Positions 3,468-55,657 of a stretch of 64,000 nt of DNA are shown here, piece by piece. The notes under the pieces are model-generated. The model had not been told where the DNA came from, searched no databases, and saw only the letters and a list, made by a program, of their open reading frames with translations. Within the stretch, counting starts at the first letter, position 1, and each line of letters starts with the position of its first letter. The position numbers and the translations under genes are program-made. Source of the stretch: an uncultured Gemmatimonadota bacterium (GTDB lineage Bacteria > JAAXHH01); contig OX638340.1 in NCBI GenBank assembly GCA_951812955.1, positions 480,001 to 544,000 on the forward strand, written 5' to 3'.

Positions 3468-4265
3468 ATGGAACACCTCAGCTACATGCTGATCGATCCC
3501 CCAGCTCGATGGGGCGGGAGTATCGACGATACCTTCGGTTTCATAAGAAACAGCGGATATACCGGCGTGGAACTTAACCTCACACCGGAACTGGTGAGCC
3601 GGCTGGATGAAATCGAACGCGCTGCCCGCGGAAATCAACTGCGCGTTGTTTCCCTGCTCACGGGTGTGGCATACGAGGACGGGCTCTGTCTCAGCTCCCC
3701 AGATGAATCAATCCGCGAAATGACCGTCGCCCGTCTGGTGGAGAACCTGGAGACCGCGGAACGGTTCAACGCCATACTCGTGGTCGGATTGCTTCAGGGA
3801 CTGCGGTCCGATGAACCGGACCCGGATGTCGCCAACGAACGGATCGTCTCCTGCCTGCAGCTTGTTGGAAGGGAAGCGGAATCGAAAAGTATAGACATTG
3901 TGATCGAGCCGGTAAACCACCTTCAAGTGGGGTTCAATCACAGCGTGGGCGAGGTCCGTAAACTGATCCGCACCATCGGGTCGAGCGCTTTTCATCCCAT
4001 GGTCGATACGATTCACATGAATATCGAAGAGACCTCTCTCGTCAAGCCGATCCAAGACTGCGGCGCCAGTCTCAGGCACGTGCATCTCTGTGAAAGCCAC
4101 GGCGGCCTGCCGGGAACCGGCCGAATCGACTTCGCGGAAGTACTCCATGCCCTGAAAGGCATAAACTATCCGCATTTTGCATCGGTGAAGGTCTACCGAA
4201 AGGCCGGGTTGCGGGAAGCGGTGGAGCGGAGTATGGCTTACTTCAGGGGCTTGCGGTCGGGATAG
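3468..4265 (+). CDS. Sugar phosphate isomerase/epimerase (xylose-isomerase-like TIM barrel)
   Basis: A 265-aa protein with the AP-endonuclease-2/TIM-barrel signature. It has a conserved E in the IEP motif and an HxH.E...G..P.TG region. Confidence 0.7.
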   Translation: MEHLSYMLIDPPARWGGSIDDTFGFIRNSGYTGVELNLTPELVSRLDEIERAARGNQLRVVSLLTGVAYEDGLCLSSPDESIREMTVARLVENLETAERFNAILVVGLLQGLRSDEPDPDVANERIVSCLQLVGREAESKSIDIVIEPVNHLQVGFNHSVGEVRKLIRTIGSSAFHPMVDTIHMNIEETSLVKPIQDCGASLRHVHLCESHGGLPGTGRIDFAEVLHALKGINYPHFASVKVYRKAGLREAVERSMAYFRGLRSG

Positions 4266-4311
4266 GCTTGCTGCCAGTGGCTTGCGGTCGGGATAGGCTT
4301 GCTGCCGGTGA
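4246..4311. repeat. Tandem direct duplication, 2 x about 32 nt, that copies the 3' end and stop codon of the upstream gene
   Basis: ggcttgcggtcgggataggcttgctgccagtg is followed immediately by ggcttgcggtcgggataggcttgctgccggtg. The first copy encodes the C-terminal GLRSG plus the TAG of the 3468..4265 gene. A second, unrelated pair, gggccatttcggcttttgtgg and gggccattccggcttttgcgg, sits at about 4334-4396. Confidence 0.8.
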
Positions 4312-4369
4312 ATCGGGATAGGTGGGCCTCTCCGTAAGGGCCATTTCGGCTTTTGTGGATGACACGTCT

Positions 4370-5386
4370 TCAGGGCCATTCCGGCTTTTGCGGGTGGCCG
4401 GTGCGGATGGATGCCAACCCCGCTTCGCATACCGCCACGACGCGCGCGCCGATTCGTGCCGGGATCGGGTTTTCCATTTTTCCGTCGAGCGTGTCCAGGA
4501 AGTCCACGACGGACCGGCCCCAGCCATGGCCGCCCACGGCGGCATCGTCCGAGGCATTGGGTAGTACGATCGGTTCCTTCCCGCGGCGGTACAGCTTGCC
4601 ATTCCATAGCGTCCCCTCGGTGCCATAGACGGCCAGCATGCCGCCTCCCATGCCTTCCCCCGAGCAGCCGCTGGTGACGAAAACCTTTCCGAGCACCCCG
4701 TTCTCGAATTTCAGCATGACGATATAGCAGTCGTCCGAGGGAAACTCGGGCACGCTCAGTTTGCTGCTGTAGGCGAAGACCTCGCCGACGGGCGAATCGA
4801 CTGTGGACAGGATGTTGTCTATGGGATGGCAGCCGCCGCCCAGGAGTATGTTCTGCGGGTTATCCCGGTCGATCCGCCACGGCGTGTGGCCCCGCCCGCC
4901 CGGATGGTAGATAGACCACATGTCGTGGATATAGTCGCCCTGGACAAAAAACACGTCGCCGATCTCACCCGATCGGGCTGCCATGGACATTTCCCGCCAG
5001 GGGTACATGTACCGGATAGTATGATCCGTCATCACCGTCCGGCCCGTCCGGTCGGCGGCGTCGATGATGCGGTGTGCGTCGGCGACGGTCGTGGCCAACG
5101 GCTTCTCCACGAGGGCGTGGGCGCCGAGTTCCAGCGCCATGACGGTCTGATCGGCGTGCAGGTGGTCCGGTCCGGCCACGGCGACGATGTCCGGCCGTGT
5201 TCTAGAGATCAATGTCCGAAGGTCGTCACCGGTAGCGGCATCGCGATAGAGCGACCTGGCCGCTGCAAGTTTCGCCTCGATGGGGTCGAAGAGGGCGGTA
5301 ACTCGGGCGCGGCCGCTTTGCTCGGCCACGTGCGCCACGTATTTGCCGGCGCTGCCGCAACCGCTCAGAAGTAAGGAATAGGACAT
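4370..5386 (-). CDS. Gfo/Idh/MocA-family NAD(P)-dependent oxidoreductase
   Basis: A 338-aa protein with an N-terminal Rossmann region, then the EKP motif and C-terminal alpha/beta domain typical of Gfo/Idh/MocA dehydrogenases. Confidence 0.8.
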   Translation of the reverse strand: MSYSLLLSGCGSAGKYVAHVAEQSGRARVTALFDPIEAKLAAARSLYRDAATGDDLRTLISRTRPDIVAVAGPDHLHADQTVMALELGAHALVEKPLATTVADAHRIIDAADRTGRTVMTDHTIRYMYPWREMSMAARSGEIGDVFFVQGDYIHDMWSIYHPGGRGHTPWRIDRDNPQNILLGGGCHPIDNILSTVDSPVGEVFAYSSKLSVPEFPSDDCYIVMLKFENGVLGKVFVTSGCSGEGMGGGMLAVYGTEGTLWNGKLYRRGKEPIVLPNASDDAAVGGHGWGRSVVDFLDTLDGKMENPIPARIGARVVAVCEAGLASIRTGHPQKPEWP

Positions 5387-5413: not shown

Positions 5414-6748
5414 TCACTTCATCTGCTCCAGCCTGGTCCGGTACTTGTCATACAGGTCGGTGTGCTTGCTGCTGATATCGACCGGCCGGCCCTGGATGAA
5501 GGCCCGTTCCACCTGGGTCATGATCTCGAGGGGGTCCCCGTCGGTCACGATCAGGGTGGCGTCCTTGCCCGTCTCCAGGGAACCGAGCCTGTCTTCCACC
5601 CCGAGGATACGCGCCGGATAGAGGGTGACGGATTTCAACGCCTCTTCCCTGGGCAGGCCGTAGGCCGCCGCGGTCGCGGCGTGGTAGGGCAGGTTCCGTA
5701 CGTTCGAACCGCCGCCGCCTTCGAGCCATACCCTGCGCTCGCCGATGCAGAAATCCAGGCCGGCTTCATAGAGTTTCAGGGCATTGGTGAACGGCGCGTC
5801 ATAGGCTTCCCAACGGCGAGCGGGCAGGTAATGCACGGCGCCGATGATCACAGGGATCGCGTTTTCCTTCAAGCGGTCCGCCACCCGCCATACGTCCGCC
5901 CCGCCGACCAGGACGATCTTGAGATCTTCGGCGAGGGCCCAGTCGATGGCGGCGTGGATCTGTTTTACTTCAGATGCGTGTACGAGAACGGGAAGTTCTT
6001 TCTTAAGCACCGGGATCATCGACTCCCAGCCGAGGTCGGAGGGATGAAACGGCCCGCCGGTGCGTTCGGCCTCCTTGGCGATCATGTATGCCCTGGCTTC
6101 GCGAAAGGCGTCGCGAAGTCTGGTAAGGGCTTCCCTGCGCGCTTCGACCTGCTTCTCCCGGCTGTCCGCACCGGGAAAATCGAATATGCGGTAGGATGGC
6201 CAGCGTACGTGAAGTCCCACCGTCGATTGCAGCGTCATTTCCTCAGTGGTCCAGCCATCCAGCGCGATAAGGCCGGAAAGCCCAGAGATCAGGCCGCCAC
6301 TGGGCATGGTCAGGGCGGTCAGTATCCCGTTCGCACGGGCAACAGGGAAGTACTCGCTGTCGGGATTCACGGCGGTAACCGCGCGGACGCTCGGGGTAAC
6401 GTCCCCGATTTCCACGTTGTCCTGGGTCGCCCGCACCGAGCTGATCTCGGTCAGTCCCAGGGTCGTCGGCGCGGCGATCAGCCCGGGATACACATGTTTC
6501 CCCGTAACGTCGATGACCAGCGTGTTTTCGGGCAGGGCCAGATCGGTCCCGATACCTGTTATAACGCCGGCATCAAAGAGCACCGTGGCGCCTTCGAGGA
6601 CAGCGCCGCTCACCGTATGCACGGTTCCGCCAGTCAGGGCGATGGGACGAGCCTGCGGCCCGGACGGTTTCTGCTTGGAAGCAGCCGCCTCGTGGACCAT
6701 GGGACCGGATGCGAGACCAGCAATCAACAATACAGCCATCGTTCGCAT
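5414..6748 (-). CDS. Secreted amidohydrolase-family protein lacking the N-terminal HxH metal motif
   Basis: It has amidohydrolase-fold hallmarks: PGLI near the N-terminus and a C-terminal G.LE.GKDA.L.V.DGDPL. Where HxH is expected the sequence reads PGLIAAPTTLG. The most probable start is the ATG at 6746-6748, giving MRTMAVLLIAGLASG, a signal-peptide-like N-terminus. The ORF track extends to 6892 through in-frame tandem repeats. Confidence 0.65.
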   Translation of the reverse strand: MRTMAVLLIAGLASGPMVHEAAASKQKPSGPQARPIALTGGTVHTVSGAVLEGATVLFDAGVITGIGTDLALPENTLVIDVTGKHVYPGLIAAPTTLGLTEISSVRATQDNVEIGDVTPSVRAVTAVNPDSEYFPVARANGILTALTMPSGGLISGLSGLIALDGWTTEEMTLQSTVGLHVRWPSYRIFDFPGADSREKQVEARREALTRLRDAFREARAYMIAKEAERTGGPFHPSDLGWESMIPVLKKELPVLVHASEVKQIHAAIDWALAEDLKIVLVGGADVWRVADRLKENAIPVIIGAVHYLPARRWEAYDAPFTNALKLYEAGLDFCIGERRVWLEGGGGSNVRNLPYHAATAAAYGLPREEALKSVTLYPARILGVEDRLGSLETGKDATLIVTDGDPLEIMTQVERAFIQGRPVDISSKHTDLYDKYRTRLEQMK

Positions 6749-6834
6749 CCAACAAGCGCCTGCGAGTACAGCCATTGTCCGCCTCCAACAAGCGCCTGCG
6801 AGTACAGCCATCGTTCGATTCCAACAGGCGCTGG
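6732..6834. repeat. In-frame 36-nt tandem repeat, about 2.9 copies, spanning the start codon region of the 5414..6748 gene
   Basis: The three units are acagccatcgttcgcatccaacaagcgcctgcgagt, acagccattgtccgcctccaacaagcgcctgcgagt and acagccatcgttcgattccaacaggcgctgg. Each carries an in-frame ATG on the minus strand. In the extended ORF the repeat shows up as the peptide TMAVLAGACW(R/M)R repeated. Confidence 0.85.
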
Positions 6835-6900
6835 AAGACTTCGCCGAACGCCGCGTCCCCTGGATTGTCCGGGGCAATATCACCATCTCCAACCTCCATT

Positions 6901-6940
6901 CGCCGGGAAACCGGCCTGTCCGCCGGGAAACCGGCCTGTC
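6901..6940. repeat. Perfect tandem 20-mer x2 in the intergenic region between the two amidohydrolase genes
   Basis: cgccgggaaaccggcctgtc repeated twice back to back. Confidence 0.9.
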
Positions 6941-6945
6941 CGGTC

Positions 6946-9936
6946 CTACGCCTCCGGCGACGCTTCCCCGGTCTCGGACGAACCTTCGTCCGCATCGGGC
7001 GACTTGAGCAGTTTCTGAATCAGTCTCGTTCTTTCTTCTTCCACTTCTTTCCTCATCTGCCTGTCTTCATCGATATCGAAGTATCTTCTTCCGTCGATCC
7101 AGGTCTGTTCGCATTTCGTATACGTGGACAGGGGATGGCCGTTCCAGATCACAAAATCGGCGTCCTTGCCCGGCTCGAGCGATCCGACCCAGGGATCGAT
7201 GGCCAGTTGCTTCGCCGCGTTGAGCGTGACGAACTTCAGGGCTTCTACCTCGTCGACCCCGCCGTATTTCACCGCCTTTGCCGCCTCGGTGTTCAGTCGC
7301 CGGGCGAGTTCATCGCTGTCGGAGTTGAAGGTGACCAGTACGCCCGCGTCGTGCATCAAGGCCCCGTTGTAGGGAATGGCGTCGTAGGCTTCCACCTTGA
7401 ACGCCCACCAGTCGCTGAAGGCAGAAGCACCCGCGCCGTGGGCGGCCAGTTCGGGTGCGACCTTGTACCCCTCCAGCACGTGTTGAAAGGTGCCGATCGT
7501 AAAACCGAAATCTTCGGCCACCCGAAGGAGCATCAGGATCTCGTCCTGCCGATAGGAATGACAGTGGACGAGACGTTCGCCGGCCAGGATCTCCTGCAGT
7601 GTTTCCAGTTCGAGGTCGCGCCGGGGAGGGACGACGCCGGATTTATCTTCCAGAGCGTTGTACCGGTCCCACGACTGTTGATATTCCCGGGCCGCGCGGA
7701 AACGGTCGCGGATGATCTGTTCGACCCCCATGCGGGTCTGTGGATAGCGGTCGCTGAGAATGCGCCAGTTGCTGCGCTTGACGTTCTCGCCCAGGGCGAA
7801 CTTGATCCCCGCCTTGGCTTCGGAGAATTTGAGTTCCTCGGGGCCTGTACCCCATCTCAGCTTGATGACCTGGTTCTTGCCGCCAATCGGATTGGCCGAC
7901 CCGTGCAATACATTGGCCACGGTGAGACCGCCGGCCAGCTCTCGGTACATGGCGATATCGTAGCTGTCGATGACGTCTCCGATACCCACCTCGGCGGTCA
8001 CGGCCTGCGTGCCCTCGTTGATGCCCTCCATGATGGCCGTGTGCGAATGGGCGTCGATGATGCCGGGCGTGACGTGCTTGCCGGTACCGTCGATTTCTAC
8101 GGCATCCTCTGGCGCTTCGAGGTTCGTACCCACCTCGTCGATTTTCCCCGCGCGGATCAGCACGTCCGCGTTTTCCAGTTTGCCCCGCTCGTCCAGCGTC
8201 CACACCGTGGCGTTCCGCACGACGAAGTATTCCGGCTGCGCTGGCGCGCTTTCTCTACCGAAGGCTCCGGGTGGATACAGCGCCGGCGGTTCGTCTGCCG
8301 CGGCGGACTTCGGAATCTCCAGCGTTACCGCTTCATGCTCCGCGATGCGTTCCGCTGACCAGCTCACGCTTTCGCCGCCGGGGCGGACCCCCCGGCCCGA
8401 GATCCGGTCTCCCTGGACAGAACCCGAAAAACGCCAAACACCGGCTTCACCCAGCGCTTCATGCTCAATGCTGAATGCGATTCGGGTATCGTCCAGGTCC
8501 ATGCGGACCGTCTTGATCGTGGTACCGTCTTTGTCGATGGTGCCCTTCGGCGAACCCGCCGATCCTTCAATGGCCAGCGACAGGCTGTCTCCCTGCAGGA
8601 CGATCAGCCACGTCCCCCGTGGATCGACTACCGGGCGTGGGGTGACCACGTGACGGTTACCCGCGACCCACACATCCTGCACGCGCACGCCCTCAGCGAA
8701 CAGGGGGCCGTCGGTAATCGTCATGTTGGCCAGTTTCCCGGACTCCAGCGTACCGAGCTGGCGGCTAATGCCAAGCATGGATGCAGGGGTCGTAGTCAAC
8801 GAGGCCAGCGCGGCTTCATAATCCAGCCCGTGCTCGATCGCTTCCCGCACCCTTTCGTGAAAGTCGGCGCTTTTACCCAGCCTTGTACTGCTCAGCGCAA
8901 TGGGGATCCCGGCCCGGTGCAATTGGCCCGGATTCCCGGGCGCCAGGTCCCAGTGCCGCAGTTCTTCCAACGTGACGTCCACGGCGTCTTCCGGCGTGGA
9001 TACGGAGAGATCTTCCGACCGTGGAAAATCGAGCGGCAGGATGACCGGCGCGCCCACTTCGCGCACCGCGTCCAGCATGCGGTATTCATGGCCGCTGCCC
9101 CGGACGAGGAATCGAAGTCCGAATTCATCCGCCAGACTGGCGGCACGCAGAAAGGCGTGGTCGTCATCGACACTCATGAGAACGGCCTGGCCGCGGGCGA
9201 TCACCCCGTCCAGCGCCGCCAGCGCGTCATTGTCCTCCGGGCGTTCCTGCTGGGGATTCTCTGCGAAAGCCGCATGGGCGTCCCGGTACCATTGCGCGTC
9301 CAGGATCGTCTGCCGTATGAGGGCCGCGACGCCCATCATGGAGGCCGGATAGGTGCGGTTCCGGTTTCTCTTCATGCGCAGATGCTGGAACACATCGCGC
9401 TTCAGTATGTTCTCGTTGGGCGATCCGGAACCCAGGTTCACCACCGCGCTGCTGCCAGAGAAAACTCCCCGATCGGCTACGACCATGGCCGCCGCGAAAC
9501 CGGATTTACGCAGCCGGGCGAGTTCCTGCTCACTGACGCGGTATGCTTCGCCGGCGGCGCGTTCAGGACGGACACCGGGATTCCAGTGGGTCGATCCCGT
9601 GGACTTCTCCGCTTCCTCTTCCGGCAGGCCGGCCTGTGTGAACATCTCGATCAATCCGGGATAAATGGTCTTGCCGGAATAGTCCCACCGCTGGGCGTCC
9701 GGTGGAATGTCGACGGACGCTCCGGCTTCCACGATCAGCCCGTCCCGGACGATCACGACGCCCCTGTTGATCACGAGATCGGGCCGGACGTAAATCCGGG
9801 CGTCCTCCAGGGCGTGGACGCGTGAAGGATTCTCCCGCAGTCCCGTCTGCGGCGCCGTCTGCTGGGCTTCCGCGGCAAGGGTGACCGCCCCGGACAGCAG
9901 CATGGCCTGGATCATGATCCAACAGGTTTTCAGCAT
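6946..9936 (-). CDS. Large secreted two-domain amidohydrolase-family protein. The first domain lacks HxH; the second has it.
   Basis: Start chosen at the ATG at 9934-9936 (MLKTCWIMIQAMLLSGAVTLAAEA), which is signal-like and preceded by GGAGGAG. The first amidohydrolase-like domain has YPGLIEMFTQ with no HxH and a C-terminal GKLANMTITDGPL. The second domain has TPGIIDAHSHTAIMEG and a C-terminal GKDADFVIWNGHPL. Confidence 0.7.
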   Translation of the reverse strand: MLKTCWIMIQAMLLSGAVTLAAEAQQTAPQTGLRENPSRVHALEDARIYVRPDLVINRGVVIVRDGLIVEAGASVDIPPDAQRWDYSGKTIYPGLIEMFTQAGLPEEEAEKSTGSTHWNPGVRPERAAGEAYRVSEQELARLRKSGFAAAMVVADRGVFSGSSAVVNLGSGSPNENILKRDVFQHLRMKRNRNRTYPASMMGVAALIRQTILDAQWYRDAHAAFAENPQQERPEDNDALAALDGVIARGQAVLMSVDDDHAFLRAASLADEFGLRFLVRGSGHEYRMLDAVREVGAPVILPLDFPRSEDLSVSTPEDAVDVTLEELRHWDLAPGNPGQLHRAGIPIALSSTRLGKSADFHERVREAIEHGLDYEAALASLTTTPASMLGISRQLGTLESGKLANMTITDGPLFAEGVRVQDVWVAGNRHVVTPRPVVDPRGTWLIVLQGDSLSLAIEGSAGSPKGTIDKDGTTIKTVRMDLDDTRIAFSIEHEALGEAGVWRFSGSVQGDRISGRGVRPGGESVSWSAERIAEHEAVTLEIPKSAAADEPPALYPPGAFGRESAPAQPEYFVVRNATVWTLDERGKLENADVLIRAGKIDEVGTNLEAPEDAVEIDGTGKHVTPGIIDAHSHTAIMEGINEGTQAVTAEVGIGDVIDSYDIAMYRELAGGLTVANVLHGSANPIGGKNQVIKLRWGTGPEELKFSEAKAGIKFALGENVKRSNWRILSDRYPQTRMGVEQIIRDRFRAAREYQQSWDRYNALEDKSGVVPPRRDLELETLQEILAGERLVHCHSYRQDEILMLLRVAEDFGFTIGTFQHVLEGYKVAPELAAHGAGASAFSDWWAFKVEAYDAIPYNGALMHDAGVLVTFNSDSDELARRLNTEAAKAVKYGGVDEVEALKFVTLNAAKQLAIDPWVGSLEPGKDADFVIWNGHPLSTYTKCEQTWIDGRRYFDIDEDRQMRKEVEEERTRLIQKLLKSPDADEGSSETGEASPEA

Positions 9937-10008
9937 GATTCTCCTCCTGCAGAAAAGATTCAGATACTGATTAAAACCCAAAGCAGCACAATAACTTACT
10001 AACATTCA

Positions 10009-21252: not shown

Positions 21253-22209
21253 TCACATACGGCCGCGTGCCTGTTCGACAAACCATAGGTGGTCGGCGCG
21301 GATCAGGGATTCGTCCCGTTCGGCAGTGGCGAGAAAACCGAGTTTGTTCACGACGCGCAGAGCGGTGTACAGGTCCCACCACGGCAGGCAGCCGAAGTCC
21401 ACCCGATTCACGGATTCGTAGTACCGGGTGAAGGCGTCCATTATGTCTGGTCCGTAGAGCATCAGGATCTCGAACCGGGCATTCGACACGTCGTAGAGGG
21501 GATCCCCCAGGCGCGTGTCTTCCCAGTCGATGACCGCAGTGAGCCGGCCATCCCGCCAGAGCGTATTCCCCGGCCAGTAGTCTCCGTGCAGGACGACCGG
21601 AGTGTTATTCAAGGACAACGGCCAGCGTGGATTAAGCAGATCCAGCAAAGTACGTTCATCGGCCGAGACCAGGGCAGGATCACTTTTTCTACAAAACGCT
21701 TCGGTACAGTCATCCTCCAGCTTCAGCAGGAAATCGAGATCCCGTCCGGCCAGATCCATCTGGTGGACCTTGGCCAGTTCGCCCGCCATCTGCATCACGT
21801 AGTCCGTGGGATCATCGGGTTTCAGGTCGGTAACGCCTTCCATGTATTCCACGACGAGGGACGGCGTAGAGAACAATGGGTCGTTCGAGTCCAGGTAAAC
21901 CGGATTGGGCGTGGCCAGGCCTGCCGCGTGCGTTAACTGAAGGACCCGGAACTCGTCCGCGGCCACGTTCGGGTTCTGCTGAAGGTCGACCTCGCCGTGC
22001 AGACGGTGAATGAGTTTCCTCATCGTACCATCCGATAACTCGATTTCCAGGACGGTCACGTCGGCCGAATAACCACCGGGCAGGCTGAGATGGCGCTTCA
22101 GCCTGGCGTGCGGATTGAATCTGTGGACCAGTTTCTCGAACCGACTGGATTCGTCTACAGTTGCCATGTGTCTCAAGTACAGTTGGTTTCCCGACCAAGC
22201 CCGGACCAT
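21253..22209 (-). CDS. Phosphotransferase-family (APH-like) kinase
   Basis: It carries VLHGDYWPGN (catalytic HGD..N) and DWEDTRLGDP (the DxD metal-binding motif) of the aminoglycoside/choline kinase fold. The likely start is the internal MATVDES. Confidence 0.7.
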   Translation of the reverse strand: MVRAWSGNQLYLRHMATVDESSRFEKLVHRFNPHARLKRHLSLPGGYSADVTVLEIELSDGTMRKLIHRLHGEVDLQQNPNVAADEFRVLQLTHAAGLATPNPVYLDSNDPLFSTPSLVVEYMEGVTDLKPDDPTDYVMQMAGELAKVHQMDLAGRDLDFLLKLEDDCTEAFCRKSDPALVSADERTLLDLLNPRWPLSLNNTPVVLHGDYWPGNTLWRDGRLTAVIDWEDTRLGDPLYDVSNARFEILMLYGPDIMDAFTRYYESVNRVDFGCLPWWDLYTALRVVNKLGFLATAERDESLIRADHLWFVEQARGRM

Positions 22210-22300
22210 ACCGGACTAAACCGACCGATCCGGCCCAAACCGACCGATCCGGCCCAAACCGACCTATTCTGACCCAACCAGACCGATCTGGACCGGACAT
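22196..22300. repeat. Degenerate tandem 19-20-nt repeats in an intergenic region
   Basis: aaaccgaccgatccggccc appears twice exactly. It is flanked by diverged copies: aagcccggaccataccggact, aaaccgacctattctgaccc and aaccagaccgatctggacc. Confidence 0.75.
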
Positions 22301-50789: not shown

Positions 50790-50861
50790 TTGTTTGCTCG
50801 ACTGTTTGCTCAATTGTGAGCTCGACGGTGAGCTCAATTGTCTGCTCAACTGTCTGCTCGT
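50790..50861. repeat. Six tandem 12-nt repeats in the fabG-acpP intergenic region
   Basis: The units are tgtttgctcgac, tgtttgctcaat, tgtgagctcgac, ggtgagctcaat, tgtctgctcaac and tgtctgctcgtt, contiguous, with a core TGnnnGCTCnac. Confidence 0.85.
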
Positions 50862-55581: not shown

Positions 55582-55657
55582 GCCCTTCCGTTCCGGCCGT
55601 CGCTCTTCCGTTCAGCTCTGCCCTTCCGTTCAGGTTTGCCTTTCCGTTCCGGCCGTC
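55582..55657. repeat. Four tandem 18-20-nt repeats immediately upstream of sucC
   Basis: The units are gcccttccgttccggccgtc, gctcttccgttcagctct, gcccttccgttcaggttt and gcctttccgttccggccgtc. Confidence 0.8.

Follow-up and report, generated by a model that had tools for sequence, protein, structure and literature searches.

The 36-nt tandem array at the 5′ end of the small amidohydrolase gene in this window (the whole stretch of DNA that was analysed, 64,000 nucleotides) is probably an in-frame coding VNTR in the signal peptide of a secreted or periplasmic amidohydrolase, produced by slippage-type duplication that is nearly neutral. The array has the features of an in-frame coding tandem repeat, with head-to-tail copies, a unit length that is a multiple of 3, and a polymorphic copy number. 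A second repeat, a 20-mer pair, lies in the spacer just upstream of the gene. Features are listed below by window position.

5414..6886, minus strand: small amidohydrolase CDS, 490 aa counted from the conserved ATG, with Pfam domains Amidohydro_1 and Amidohydro_3
6680..6886, minus strand: predicted Sec-type signal peptide of 69 residues, with a long basic n-region holding the repeat, the h-region MAVLLIAGLASGPMV, and a predicted cut between AAA and SKQ
6731..6766, minus strand: 36-nt unit C, encoding LAGACWMRTMAV and continuing into the hydrophobic core MAVLLIAGLASG, with ATGs at 6748-6746 and 6739-6737
6767..6802, minus strand: 36-nt unit B, encoding LAGACWRRTMAV, with GGAGG (6786-6782) 6 nt ahead of ATG 6775-6773
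6803..6838, minus strand: 36-nt unit A, lying furthest upstream and the most diverged of the three, encoding SSSACWNRTMAV, with an internal ATG at 6811-6809
6884..6897, minus strand: probable translation initiation region, with Shine-Dalgarno (SD) sequence GGAGG (6897-6893), a 6-nt spacer, and ATG (6886-6884)
6901..6940, minus strand: 20-mer pair GACAGGCCGGTTTCCCGGCG in the spacer between the large amidohydrolase stop and the small amidohydrolase SD, with the palindrome GCCGG-TTTC-CCGGC in each copy
6946..10005, minus strand: large amidohydrolase gene, upstream of the small one, 1019-aa ORF as listed

The small amidohydrolase has 6697 homologues in a protein search, and among solved structures 3ooq ('amidohydrolase') is the closest to it (E = 9e-39). 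An exact look-up of its sequence, starting at either ATG 6886 or TTG 6892, found it absent from the collection searched. The large gene ends at the stop TAG 6948-6946, 5 nt before the first 20-mer, and the large-then-small gene order is kept in all relatives examined. Metagenome-assembled genomes of the related uncultured lineage carry the labels Gemmatimonadetes or Ca. Latescibacterota.

TRF places the array at 6731-6831 (period 36, 2.8 copies, 87% matches, score 160), and a repeat search divides it into three 36-nt units at 6731-6766, 6767-6802, and 6803-6838, which are 100%, 92%, and 75% identical to the reference unit. These results bear out a preliminary description of this DNA, which reported a 36-nt unit repeated about 2.9 times in frame, each copy with its own ATG. 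Each unit is 12 codons long and lies in the reading frame of the conserved ATG 6886 (frame 0), with in-frame ATGs at 6811, 6775, and 6739. Units B and C match at 33/36 positions, while unit A matches them at 25-27/36. The two 20-mers (each CGCCGGGAAACCGGCCTGTC, at 6901-6920 and 6921-6940) are identical, as was first described, and TRF reports them at 6901-6942 (period 20, 2.1 copies, 100% matches, score 84). A 33/36 match between neighbouring 36-mers and a perfect 20-mer pair are far beyond chance.

The preliminary description placed both repeats upstream of the small amidohydrolase gene. This is correct for the 20-mer pair, which is in the intergenic spacer, but the 36-mer array is within the CDS. 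Nor does the array span the start codon, as had been thought: unit A begins at 6838, and the array is 46 nt downstream of the conserved start ATG 6886-6884.

Relatives' sequences are given L-numbers (e.g., L001), with W for the window. An assembly artefact, which the preliminary description had considered, is rejected: the same layout of three 36-mers and two 20-mers was independently assembled in L047, a 2.47-Mb contig of another assembly. Five further assemblies, one of them a 3.9-Mb chromosome, have two-copy alleles.

Translation start and signal peptide

The sequence GGAGG-N6-ATG (6897-6884) lies upstream of the repeat and is invariant in 18/18 close relatives, with a spacer of 6 nt, but 7 nt in L003. 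Frame 0 from this ATG has no stop in any of the 18, and frame +1 has stops in all of them. The distance from ATG to cleavage site takes seven lengths in these relatives (138, 147, 150, 168, 171, 177, and 207 nt), all multiples of 3. The Met codons of the repeat, however, are missing in six relatives (L004, L006, L008, L009, L011, and L013). An invariant SD-ATG, an always-open frame, and unconserved repeat Mets together point to ATG 6886 as most likely the true start, and the ATGs of the units would then be internal Met codons. The ORF listing instead starts the gene at TTG 6892, which abuts the SD and is implausible.

This bears on the earlier claim that the duplication multiplies the initiation region. 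On that reading, there would be several in-frame starts, and copy number would tune expression or yield different precursor N-termini. Every unit does contain an in-frame ATG, and in the window and L047 a T-to-G substitution has created an exact GGAGG-N6-ATG in copy B (6786-6773), with the same geometry as the true start. The public gene call for L047 (P0134, 453 aa) even begins at the copy B ATG. However, copies A and C have GGAAT and GGATG ahead of them, neither of which is a canonical SD, and GGAGG is missing from the 2-copy alleles. The six relatives that lack the repeat Mets have a single copy, and there too the upstream SD-ATG is kept and the frame is open. A product translated from 6775 would begin MAVLAGACW and would lack a charged n-region ahead of its first run of hydrophobic residues. 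We therefore do not retain the claim and consider multiple starts quite unlikely as the main explanation, though the copy B site could act as an extra internal start in the window and L047.

The N-terminus has the features of a Sec-type (SPase I) signal peptide, i.e., a basic n-region, a hydrophobic h-region, and small residues at -3/-1, and this class is predicted. We deduced the cleavage site between AAA and SKQ by the -3/-1 Ala rule. In the window, hydropathy peaks at residues 49-53, over MAVLLIAGL, with a net charge of +8 ahead of the peak. The predicted signal peptide is 69 aa long in the window versus 46-50 aa in single-copy relatives, and the net charge ahead of the hydrophobic core is +5 in the one-copy form but +8 in the three-copy form. 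Precursor length thus follows copy number, in line with the earlier suggestion that copy number alters signal-peptide length.

Distant homologues have plain signal peptides of 22-30 aa that end right before a conserved AS(K/D)Q(K/I)P motif. Close relatives carry a ~25-codon N-terminal extension after the SD-ATG, and its first ten codons (M-x-x-L-P-R-x-x-x-G) are better conserved. We also considered other kinds of export signal. A Tat signal is rejected: TRRSAK is confined to the window's subclade and lies at least 12 residues from the core, other relatives have GTGRS or GTNPS, and an NCBIfam scan of the N-terminal 79 aa gave no match. A lipoprotein signal is rejected by inspection: the spacing of LAGAC is non-canonical, an Arg falls within the 6 residues before it, and the Cys is absent in most relatives. 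For ESPR (PF13018), there was no Pfam match at E <=10 with either the full protein or the N-terminal 79 aa. A CbtB match in the Pfam scan at this threshold was judged to be chance.

Copy number and constraint among relatives

Strains differ in the number of copies, which the preliminary description had proposed as a check: the 36-mer is present one to three times and the 20-mer once or twice. The window and L047 have three 36-mers and two 20-mers, L044 and L002 have two of each, L001 and L054 have two 36-mers and one 20-mer, and L049 and L050 have one of each. L048 has three diverged 36-mer copies and a 12-nt repeat present twice. The mature CDS is 94.5-98.7% identical at the nucleotide level among W, L047, L044, L001, L002, L049, and L050 (L049 and L050 are the same), and that of L048 is 88.5-89.4% identical to these. 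Within a 90% protein cluster, alleles are 466 aa (one copy), 478 aa (two copies), and 495 aa (three diverged copies). We scanned metagenomes for higher copy numbers with a unit-junction 20-mer and found one relevant contig, L054, which has two copies; six other matches were to an unrelated gene.

The distribution of units suggests successive rounds of duplication. The junction CTCGCAGGCGC is common to all multi-copy alleles in the 95-99% identity group, and a homologue of unit A is found in every 2-copy and 3-copy relative. Unit B is the extra copy, present in the window and L047 only and absent from 2-copy L001, L002, and L044 and from 1-copy L049 and L050. In the tree, 1-copy L049 joins 2-copy L044 with 100% bootstrap, so contraction also occurs. 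Other relatives have separate in-frame duplications at the same place: 39 nt twice in L045, 27 nt twice (perfect) in L018, and 15 nt twice in L034. In-frame units with a copy number that differs between strains agree with the slipped-strand-type duplication first proposed, and slippage is the probable mechanism.

The extension evolves nearly neutrally. In its first 26 codons, substitutions are spread evenly over the three codon positions (78, 86, and 87), and codon differences are 49 synonymous versus 143 non-synonymous. Taken alone, this flat pattern would equally suit an untranslated leader, and only frame conservation and the invariant SD-ATG favour translation of the extension and, with it, the array. 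Short repeats are also a habit of this genome: 6/7 window tandem repeats with a TRF score of at least 60 are in non-coding DNA, which makes up ~8% of the window, and the homologous spacers of relatives hold other repeat units. The preliminary description had noted that this is one of several such duplications at the 5′ ends of genes in the window. Other strong repeats do exist, some of them at 5′ ends, but they are intergenic, some are at 3′ ends, and none is in frame within a CDS.

The location of the duplications raises a different possibility, adaptive length tuning. The boundary between n-region and core would then be a selected or mutational hotspot, and a longer, more basic peptide would alter export route, rate, or membrane retention in a host-associated niche. 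The independent in-frame duplications, at least four in number (15, 27, 36, and 39 nt) or five events with the L048 12-nt repeat, all overlap the same three codons (23-25). In a simulation with uniform placement, such clustering has p = 0.02-0.045 for five events, which gives some indication of a local hotspot or of selection and not of neutrality alone, but p = 0.12-0.21 for four, which is not significant. The rise in charge with copy number fits this reading, and L048 has kept diverged triplicate copies, which indicates that extra units can last long and is compatible with some benefit. On the other hand, the better conservation of the first ten codons means that the apparent hotspot may be just the least constrained stretch. 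One-copy alleles persist, one of them derived by contraction, substitution is near-neutral, and tandem repeats are scattered through the spacers of the same genomes. We therefore regard length tuning as unlikely. We would give slightly less credence to a composite version, in which the junction of extension and core is a true hotspot (12-, 15-, 27-, 36-, and 39-nt units) kept because length/charge tunes export, and the window strain's point change may add a second ribosome-binding site and start, giving two precursor isoforms.

The spacer palindrome

The 20-mer contains a perfect palindrome, GCCGG-N4-CCGGC, whose stem is invariant in relatives while the loop varies (TTTC, TATC, ATTC, or GATC), and the conserved palindrome sits 4 nt ahead of the ribosome-binding site. 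Every relative has an intact SD-proximal 20-mer copy. The distal one is decaying: it is missing from L001, L048, L049, and L050 and carries mutations in L002, L044, and L047, with the stem broken in L002 (CCTGAC) and L047 (CCCGAC).

An invariant stem could mark a non-coding regulatory element, i.e., the repeats could bind proteins as operator- or iteron-like sites or could form a structured leader RNA, and the CDS would start further downstream. The flat codon-position pattern of the extension would also suit this reading. However, the 36-mer region changes length only in multiples of 3, and frame 0 is open in every sequence. We found no sigma-70-like promoter in a scan and no intrinsic terminator candidate in 6400-7300. 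Nor is the palindrome dispersed through the window: the 64 kb hold only these two exact copies, and four other matches have 2 mismatches and lie in non-comparable contexts.

A structured cis-regulatory RNA in particular is rejected, with neither an Rfam match nor a covariation-supported structure. An Rfam scan of 6600-7100 at E <=1 returned only a chance sRNA match (E = 0.4, far below the gathering score). The spacer and repeat fold no better than shuffled sequences (z = -0.2, -0.6, and +0.4). RNAalifold with 15 relatives found 0 covarying pairs, i.e., no compensatory changes, though both small stems are invariant, so covariation is uninformative here. Overall, a regulatory element in place of a coding repeat is highly improbable.

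Proposed origin and known systems

Our preferred explanation, a nearly neutral coding VNTR in a signal peptide, would run as follows. Translation would begin at the conserved GGAGG-N6-ATG, and the clade's signal peptide would have a ~25-residue, weakly constrained N-terminal extension before its hydrophobic core. Slippage in replication or unequal exchange would have doubled 12 codons at the boundary between the two, and a second duplication round would have made the third copy in the window. Every added unit would place a short hydrophobic stub and one or two arginines in the n-region, and signal peptidase, cutting between AAA and SKQ, would leave the mature enzyme unaltered. The 20-mer pair would be a separate event of the same kind, doubling the conserved palindrome near the ribosome-binding site. 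Both repeats would reflect frequent short tandem duplication throughout the lineage, with copies kept where constraint is low, and both are most likely nearly neutral.

The array is thus genuine, but as a length polymorphism of the slippage type it is fairly ordinary, and it reveals no new mechanism. It has several practical consequences. Public gene calls for this family use at least four different ATGs (441, 453, 466, and 478 aa), and the start codon can now be fixed, most likely at ATG 6886. The repeats are real strain-level polymorphism rather than assembly errors, and the natural series of 1-, 2-, and 3-copy alleles can be used to test n-region length against Sec export. More generally, this symbiont-like lineage gathers short tandem duplications in weakly constrained DNA, which bears on assembly, strain typing, and annotation.

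We found no direct precedent in the literature for tandem duplications in bacterial signal peptides, and engineered tandem signal-peptide cassettes are only loosely related. Several known systems share some of the features. In Neisseria opa genes, CTCTT pentamer repeats lie in the signal-peptide coding region, and a change in copy number shifts the frame and switches the gene on or off. The array likewise lies in the signal-peptide-coding part and would change copy number by slippage, but its unit is 36 nt rather than 5 nt, its copies are 69-92% identical, and every allele is in frame. A phase-variable simple-sequence locus (1-7 nt unit) is therefore rejected: the units here are 36 and 20 nt, the 36-mer alleles are all in frame, and the 20-mer is upstream of the SD with no promoter-like site.

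In Helicobacter pylori vacA s1/s2, the s2 insertion changes the cleavage site and mature N-terminus. There, too, strains are told apart by a natural insertion or length difference in a secreted protein's signal region, but here the c-region and predicted cleavage site (HEAAA before SKQ) are untouched. The ESPR of autotransporters and two-partner secretion proteins resembles the extension in that the signal peptide is unusually long, with an extra N-terminal charged, weakly hydrophobic segment before the n-h-c signal. However, there is no sequence similarity, the passenger here is a soluble amidohydrolase, and the extension is poorly conserved.

Bacterial in-frame coding VNTRs/minisatellites arise by slipped-strand mispairing or unequal recombination. 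Those in surface-exposed mature domains differ from this array, which is in a predicted cleaved signal peptide, would leave the mature protein unchanged, and has only 1-3 copies. In other respects the array is like them: its units are head-to-tail and a multiple of three in length, the frame is kept, both expansion and contraction occur among close strains, and the copies diverge with age.

Layout of the repeats

TRF scores the 36-nt tandem array, 2.8 copies with 87% matches over 6731-6831, at 160; it also detects a perfect 20-nt pair at 6901-6942. A separate repeat search resolves the array into three 36-nt units (6731-6766, 6767-6802 and 6803-6838) and the pair into two identical copies, 6901-6920 and 6921-6940. 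Units B and C share 33/36 positions, while unit A matches them at 25/36 and 27/36. Chance is thereby ruled out, and the repeats are present as noted in the preliminary description. In this region almost every gene lies on the minus strand, and the locus reads as follows in that direction:

6948-6946, minus: TAG stop of the 1019-aa two-domain amidohydrolase (the large gene)
6940-6901, minus: two 20-mers, GACAGGCCGGTTTCCCGGCG
6900-6898, minus: AAT
6897-6893, minus: GGAGG
6892-6887, minus: TTGGAG
6886-6884, minus: ATG
6883-6839, minus: 15 codons between the ATG and unit A
6838-6731, minus: 36-nt units A, B and C
to 5414, minus: remainder of the 490-aa amidohydrolase (the small gene)

The probable translation start

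We gathered 43 homologous loci (L handles) from species-representative genomes and added extra contigs via exact protein look-ups. In 18 close relatives, the spacer 3' of the large gene is approximately 40 nt and has the form TAG-N10-GCCGG-N4-CCGGC-GAATGGAGG-N6-ATG. GGAGG and the ATG are invariant, and the gap between them is always 6 nt except in L003 (7 nt). The frame from this ATG is open to the conserved AS-KQKP motif in 18/18 relatives, and frame +1 contains stop codons in all 18. ATG-to-motif distance takes seven values (138, 147, 150, 168, 171, 177 and 207 nt), each a multiple of three. The repeats are unlikely to be a non-coding regulatory element, because the frame is strictly preserved and RNA tests were negative.

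The Met codons of the window's repeat unit (W-M-R-T-M) are absent from L004, L006, L008, L009, L011 and L013, so they are not the family's start. Because the Shine-Dalgarno (SD) and ATG are invariant, the frame is kept and the internal Mets are not conserved, the most likely start, judged from sequence, is the ATG at 6886-6884. TTG 6892, the start in a mechanical ORF list, was rejected as it abuts the SD. The 36-mer unit had been described as spanning the start codon, but the array sits within the CDS, 46 nt 3' of that codon.

The invariant upstream start and unconserved internal Mets also contradict the idea that the duplication multiplies the initiation region. On its side, copy B acquires a perfect GGAGG-N6-ATG (6786-6773) through a T-to-G change (Met to Arg) in the window and in the L047 contig, whose copy B has the same GGAGG; public gene call P0134 starts at that ATG. 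An extra internal start at copy B is possible in the window's strain.

Start-codon annotation across the gene family is inconsistent: public protein calls (P0121, P0123, P0134, P0124, P0001) begin at several ATGs, giving 441, 453, 466 or 478 aa, and 428-aa and 431-aa calls entirely lack the signal-peptide hydrophobic core. Shortly 3' of the start, at codons 5-10 (L-P-R ... G), nearly all relatives keep CCCC-N10-GGGG (window 6863-6846, CCCCGG...CAGGGG), with a single one-sided change seen. Either a small stem in the mRNA or simple conservation of Pro/Gly codons could account for this.

Predicted signal-peptide length and copy number

In distant homologues (~60% identity), signal peptides are of the ordinary kind, 22-30 residues long, and end right before the conserved AS(D/K)Q(I/K)P motif. 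In the window's clade, the hydrophobic core MAVLLIAGLASGPMV (the hydropathy peak) is followed by HEAAA|SKQ, a putative cleavage site consistent with the -3/-1 rule for signal peptidase I. The core is preceded by an extra basic extension of ~25 residues, M-x-x-L-P-R-x-x-x-G ... S-A-K ... W-x-R. Pfam and NCBIfam searches with the extension gave no match, and it did not qualify as a Tat, lipoprotein or ESPR signal. Its substitutions are level across codon positions (78, 86 and 87), its codon differences are 49 synonymous vs 143 non-synonymous, and it appears to be translated yet weakly constrained.

Three units give a predicted signal peptide of 69 residues, vs 46-50 in single-copy relatives, and net charge ahead of the core goes from +5 to +8 between one and three units. 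Copy number thus changes predicted signal-peptide length, as had been proposed. The mature enzyme would be unchanged by copy number; we infer export and cleavage.

Alleles were compared within the closest match's 90%-identity protein cluster. One-unit alleles have 466 aa (P0124, P0126, P0127, P0132), two-unit alleles 478 aa (P0001, P0125, P0128, P0130, P0133), and one 495-aa allele (P0129) has three diverged units.

Repeat copies in the window and in contigs of relatives
Window: 36-mer x3, 20-mer x2
L047 (2.47-Mb contig; mature CDS 98.7% identical to the window): 36-mer x3, 20-mer x2
L044, L002: 36-mer x2, 20-mer x2
L001, L054: 36-mer x2, 20-mer x1
L049, L050: 36-mer x1, 20-mer x1
L048 (~89% identical to the others): 36-mer x3 (diverged), 20-mer x1, plus a 12-nt x2 repeat

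The preliminary description suggested comparing strains for copy-number variation. Strains have 1, 2 or 3 units of the 36-mer, so copy number is not invariant, and L047 repeats the window's 3x36 and 2x20, so the repeats are not artefacts. Going by their contig names and sizes, the L047, L048 and L002 assemblies look to us like long-read assemblies. Every multi-copy allele of the 95-99% group shares the junction CTCGCAGGCGC, and these alleles therefore trace to one duplication. In a tree, single-copy L049 clusters with two-copy L044 inside this group (100% bootstrap), implying a secondary contraction. The array appears both to expand and to contract.

In-frame duplications arose independently in three other lineages at the homologous site (L045, 39 nt x2; L018, perfect 27 nt x2; L034, 15 nt x2), where L007 and L014 have a 30-nt insertion. 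Codons 23-25 are shared by all of these. If events were placed uniformly, such sharing would have p = 0.12-0.21 with four events and p = 0.02-0.045 when the L048 12-nt repeat is included, which is suggestive, not decisive, of clustering beyond chance. It is possible that selection tunes signal-peptide length, given that the independent events cluster and that L048 has kept its diverged copies for a long time.

The 20-mer pair and other repeats

Each 20-mer copy (6901-6940) contains the palindrome GCCGG-TTTC-CCGGC. The GCCGG-N4-CCGGC palindrome is 4 nt upstream of the SD, and its stem is invariant in 18 relatives (L001-L018); the loop (TTTC, TATC, ATTC, GATC) and surrounding spacer vary. Fold energy of the region is ordinary (z = -0.2), there is no T-run, a terminator scan gave no call, and the motif is not a dispersed element within the window. 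The palindrome could serve as a protein site, as structure at the mRNA 5' end or as a means of coupling the two cistrons. Only the SD-proximal copy is conserved among relatives. The distal copy is absent from L001, L048, L049 and L050; its stem is disrupted by changes in L002 and L047, and its loop is changed in L044. The 20-mer duplication has the look of a passenger event; in the window its two copies are still perfect. In L002 (complete-chromosome MAG OY762445.1, ~3840-3905, homologous to window 6886-6950), the large amidohydrolase has CAG in place of its TAG stop, and its ORF continues across both 20-mers, ending at a TGA that overlaps the small gene's ATG.

The window holds seven tandem repeats with a TRF score of at least 60: the signal-peptide array and six in the ~8% of DNA that is non-coding. 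Four strong repeats elsewhere in the window are all intergenic:

1815-1907: 14-mer x6, 3' of a Na+/H+ antiporter gene
22201-22294: 19-mer x4.4, just upstream of ORF 21253..22209
50791-50859: 12/24-mer array, ~100 nt upstream of an acyl-carrier-protein-like ORF
55605-55649: 18-mer x2.5, upstream of a succinyl-CoA-synthetase-beta-like ORF

At 4244-4305, between convergent oxidoreductase and xylose-isomerase-like genes, a 31-nt x2 repeat (97% identical; also in L047 and L050) overlaps the 3' end of the xylose-isomerase-like ORF. At 4337-4361 and 4372-4396, a direct repeat (35-nt spacing, 88% identity) places a second copy of the final codons and stop of a Gfo/Idh/MocA oxidoreductase (4370..5386, minus) in the spacer downstream of that gene; L050 has 2.9 copies in the homologous spacer and L002 has 3.4.

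Because relatives' homologous spacers hold their own, differing repeat units and copy numbers, tandem-repeat formation seems to be a lineage-wide habit. The lineage would often generate short tandem duplications, and these would persist where constraint is low, i.e., in spacers and the nearly neutral signal-peptide extension. The six non-coding repeats and differing spacer units support this model. Of the preliminary reading, three points hold: duplication of the slippage type, copy number that varies between strains, and a changed signal-peptide length. The spanning of the start does not hold. The 36-mer array is an in-frame coding VNTR (variable-copy tandem repeat), an already known kind of repeat in an unusual but harmless place.
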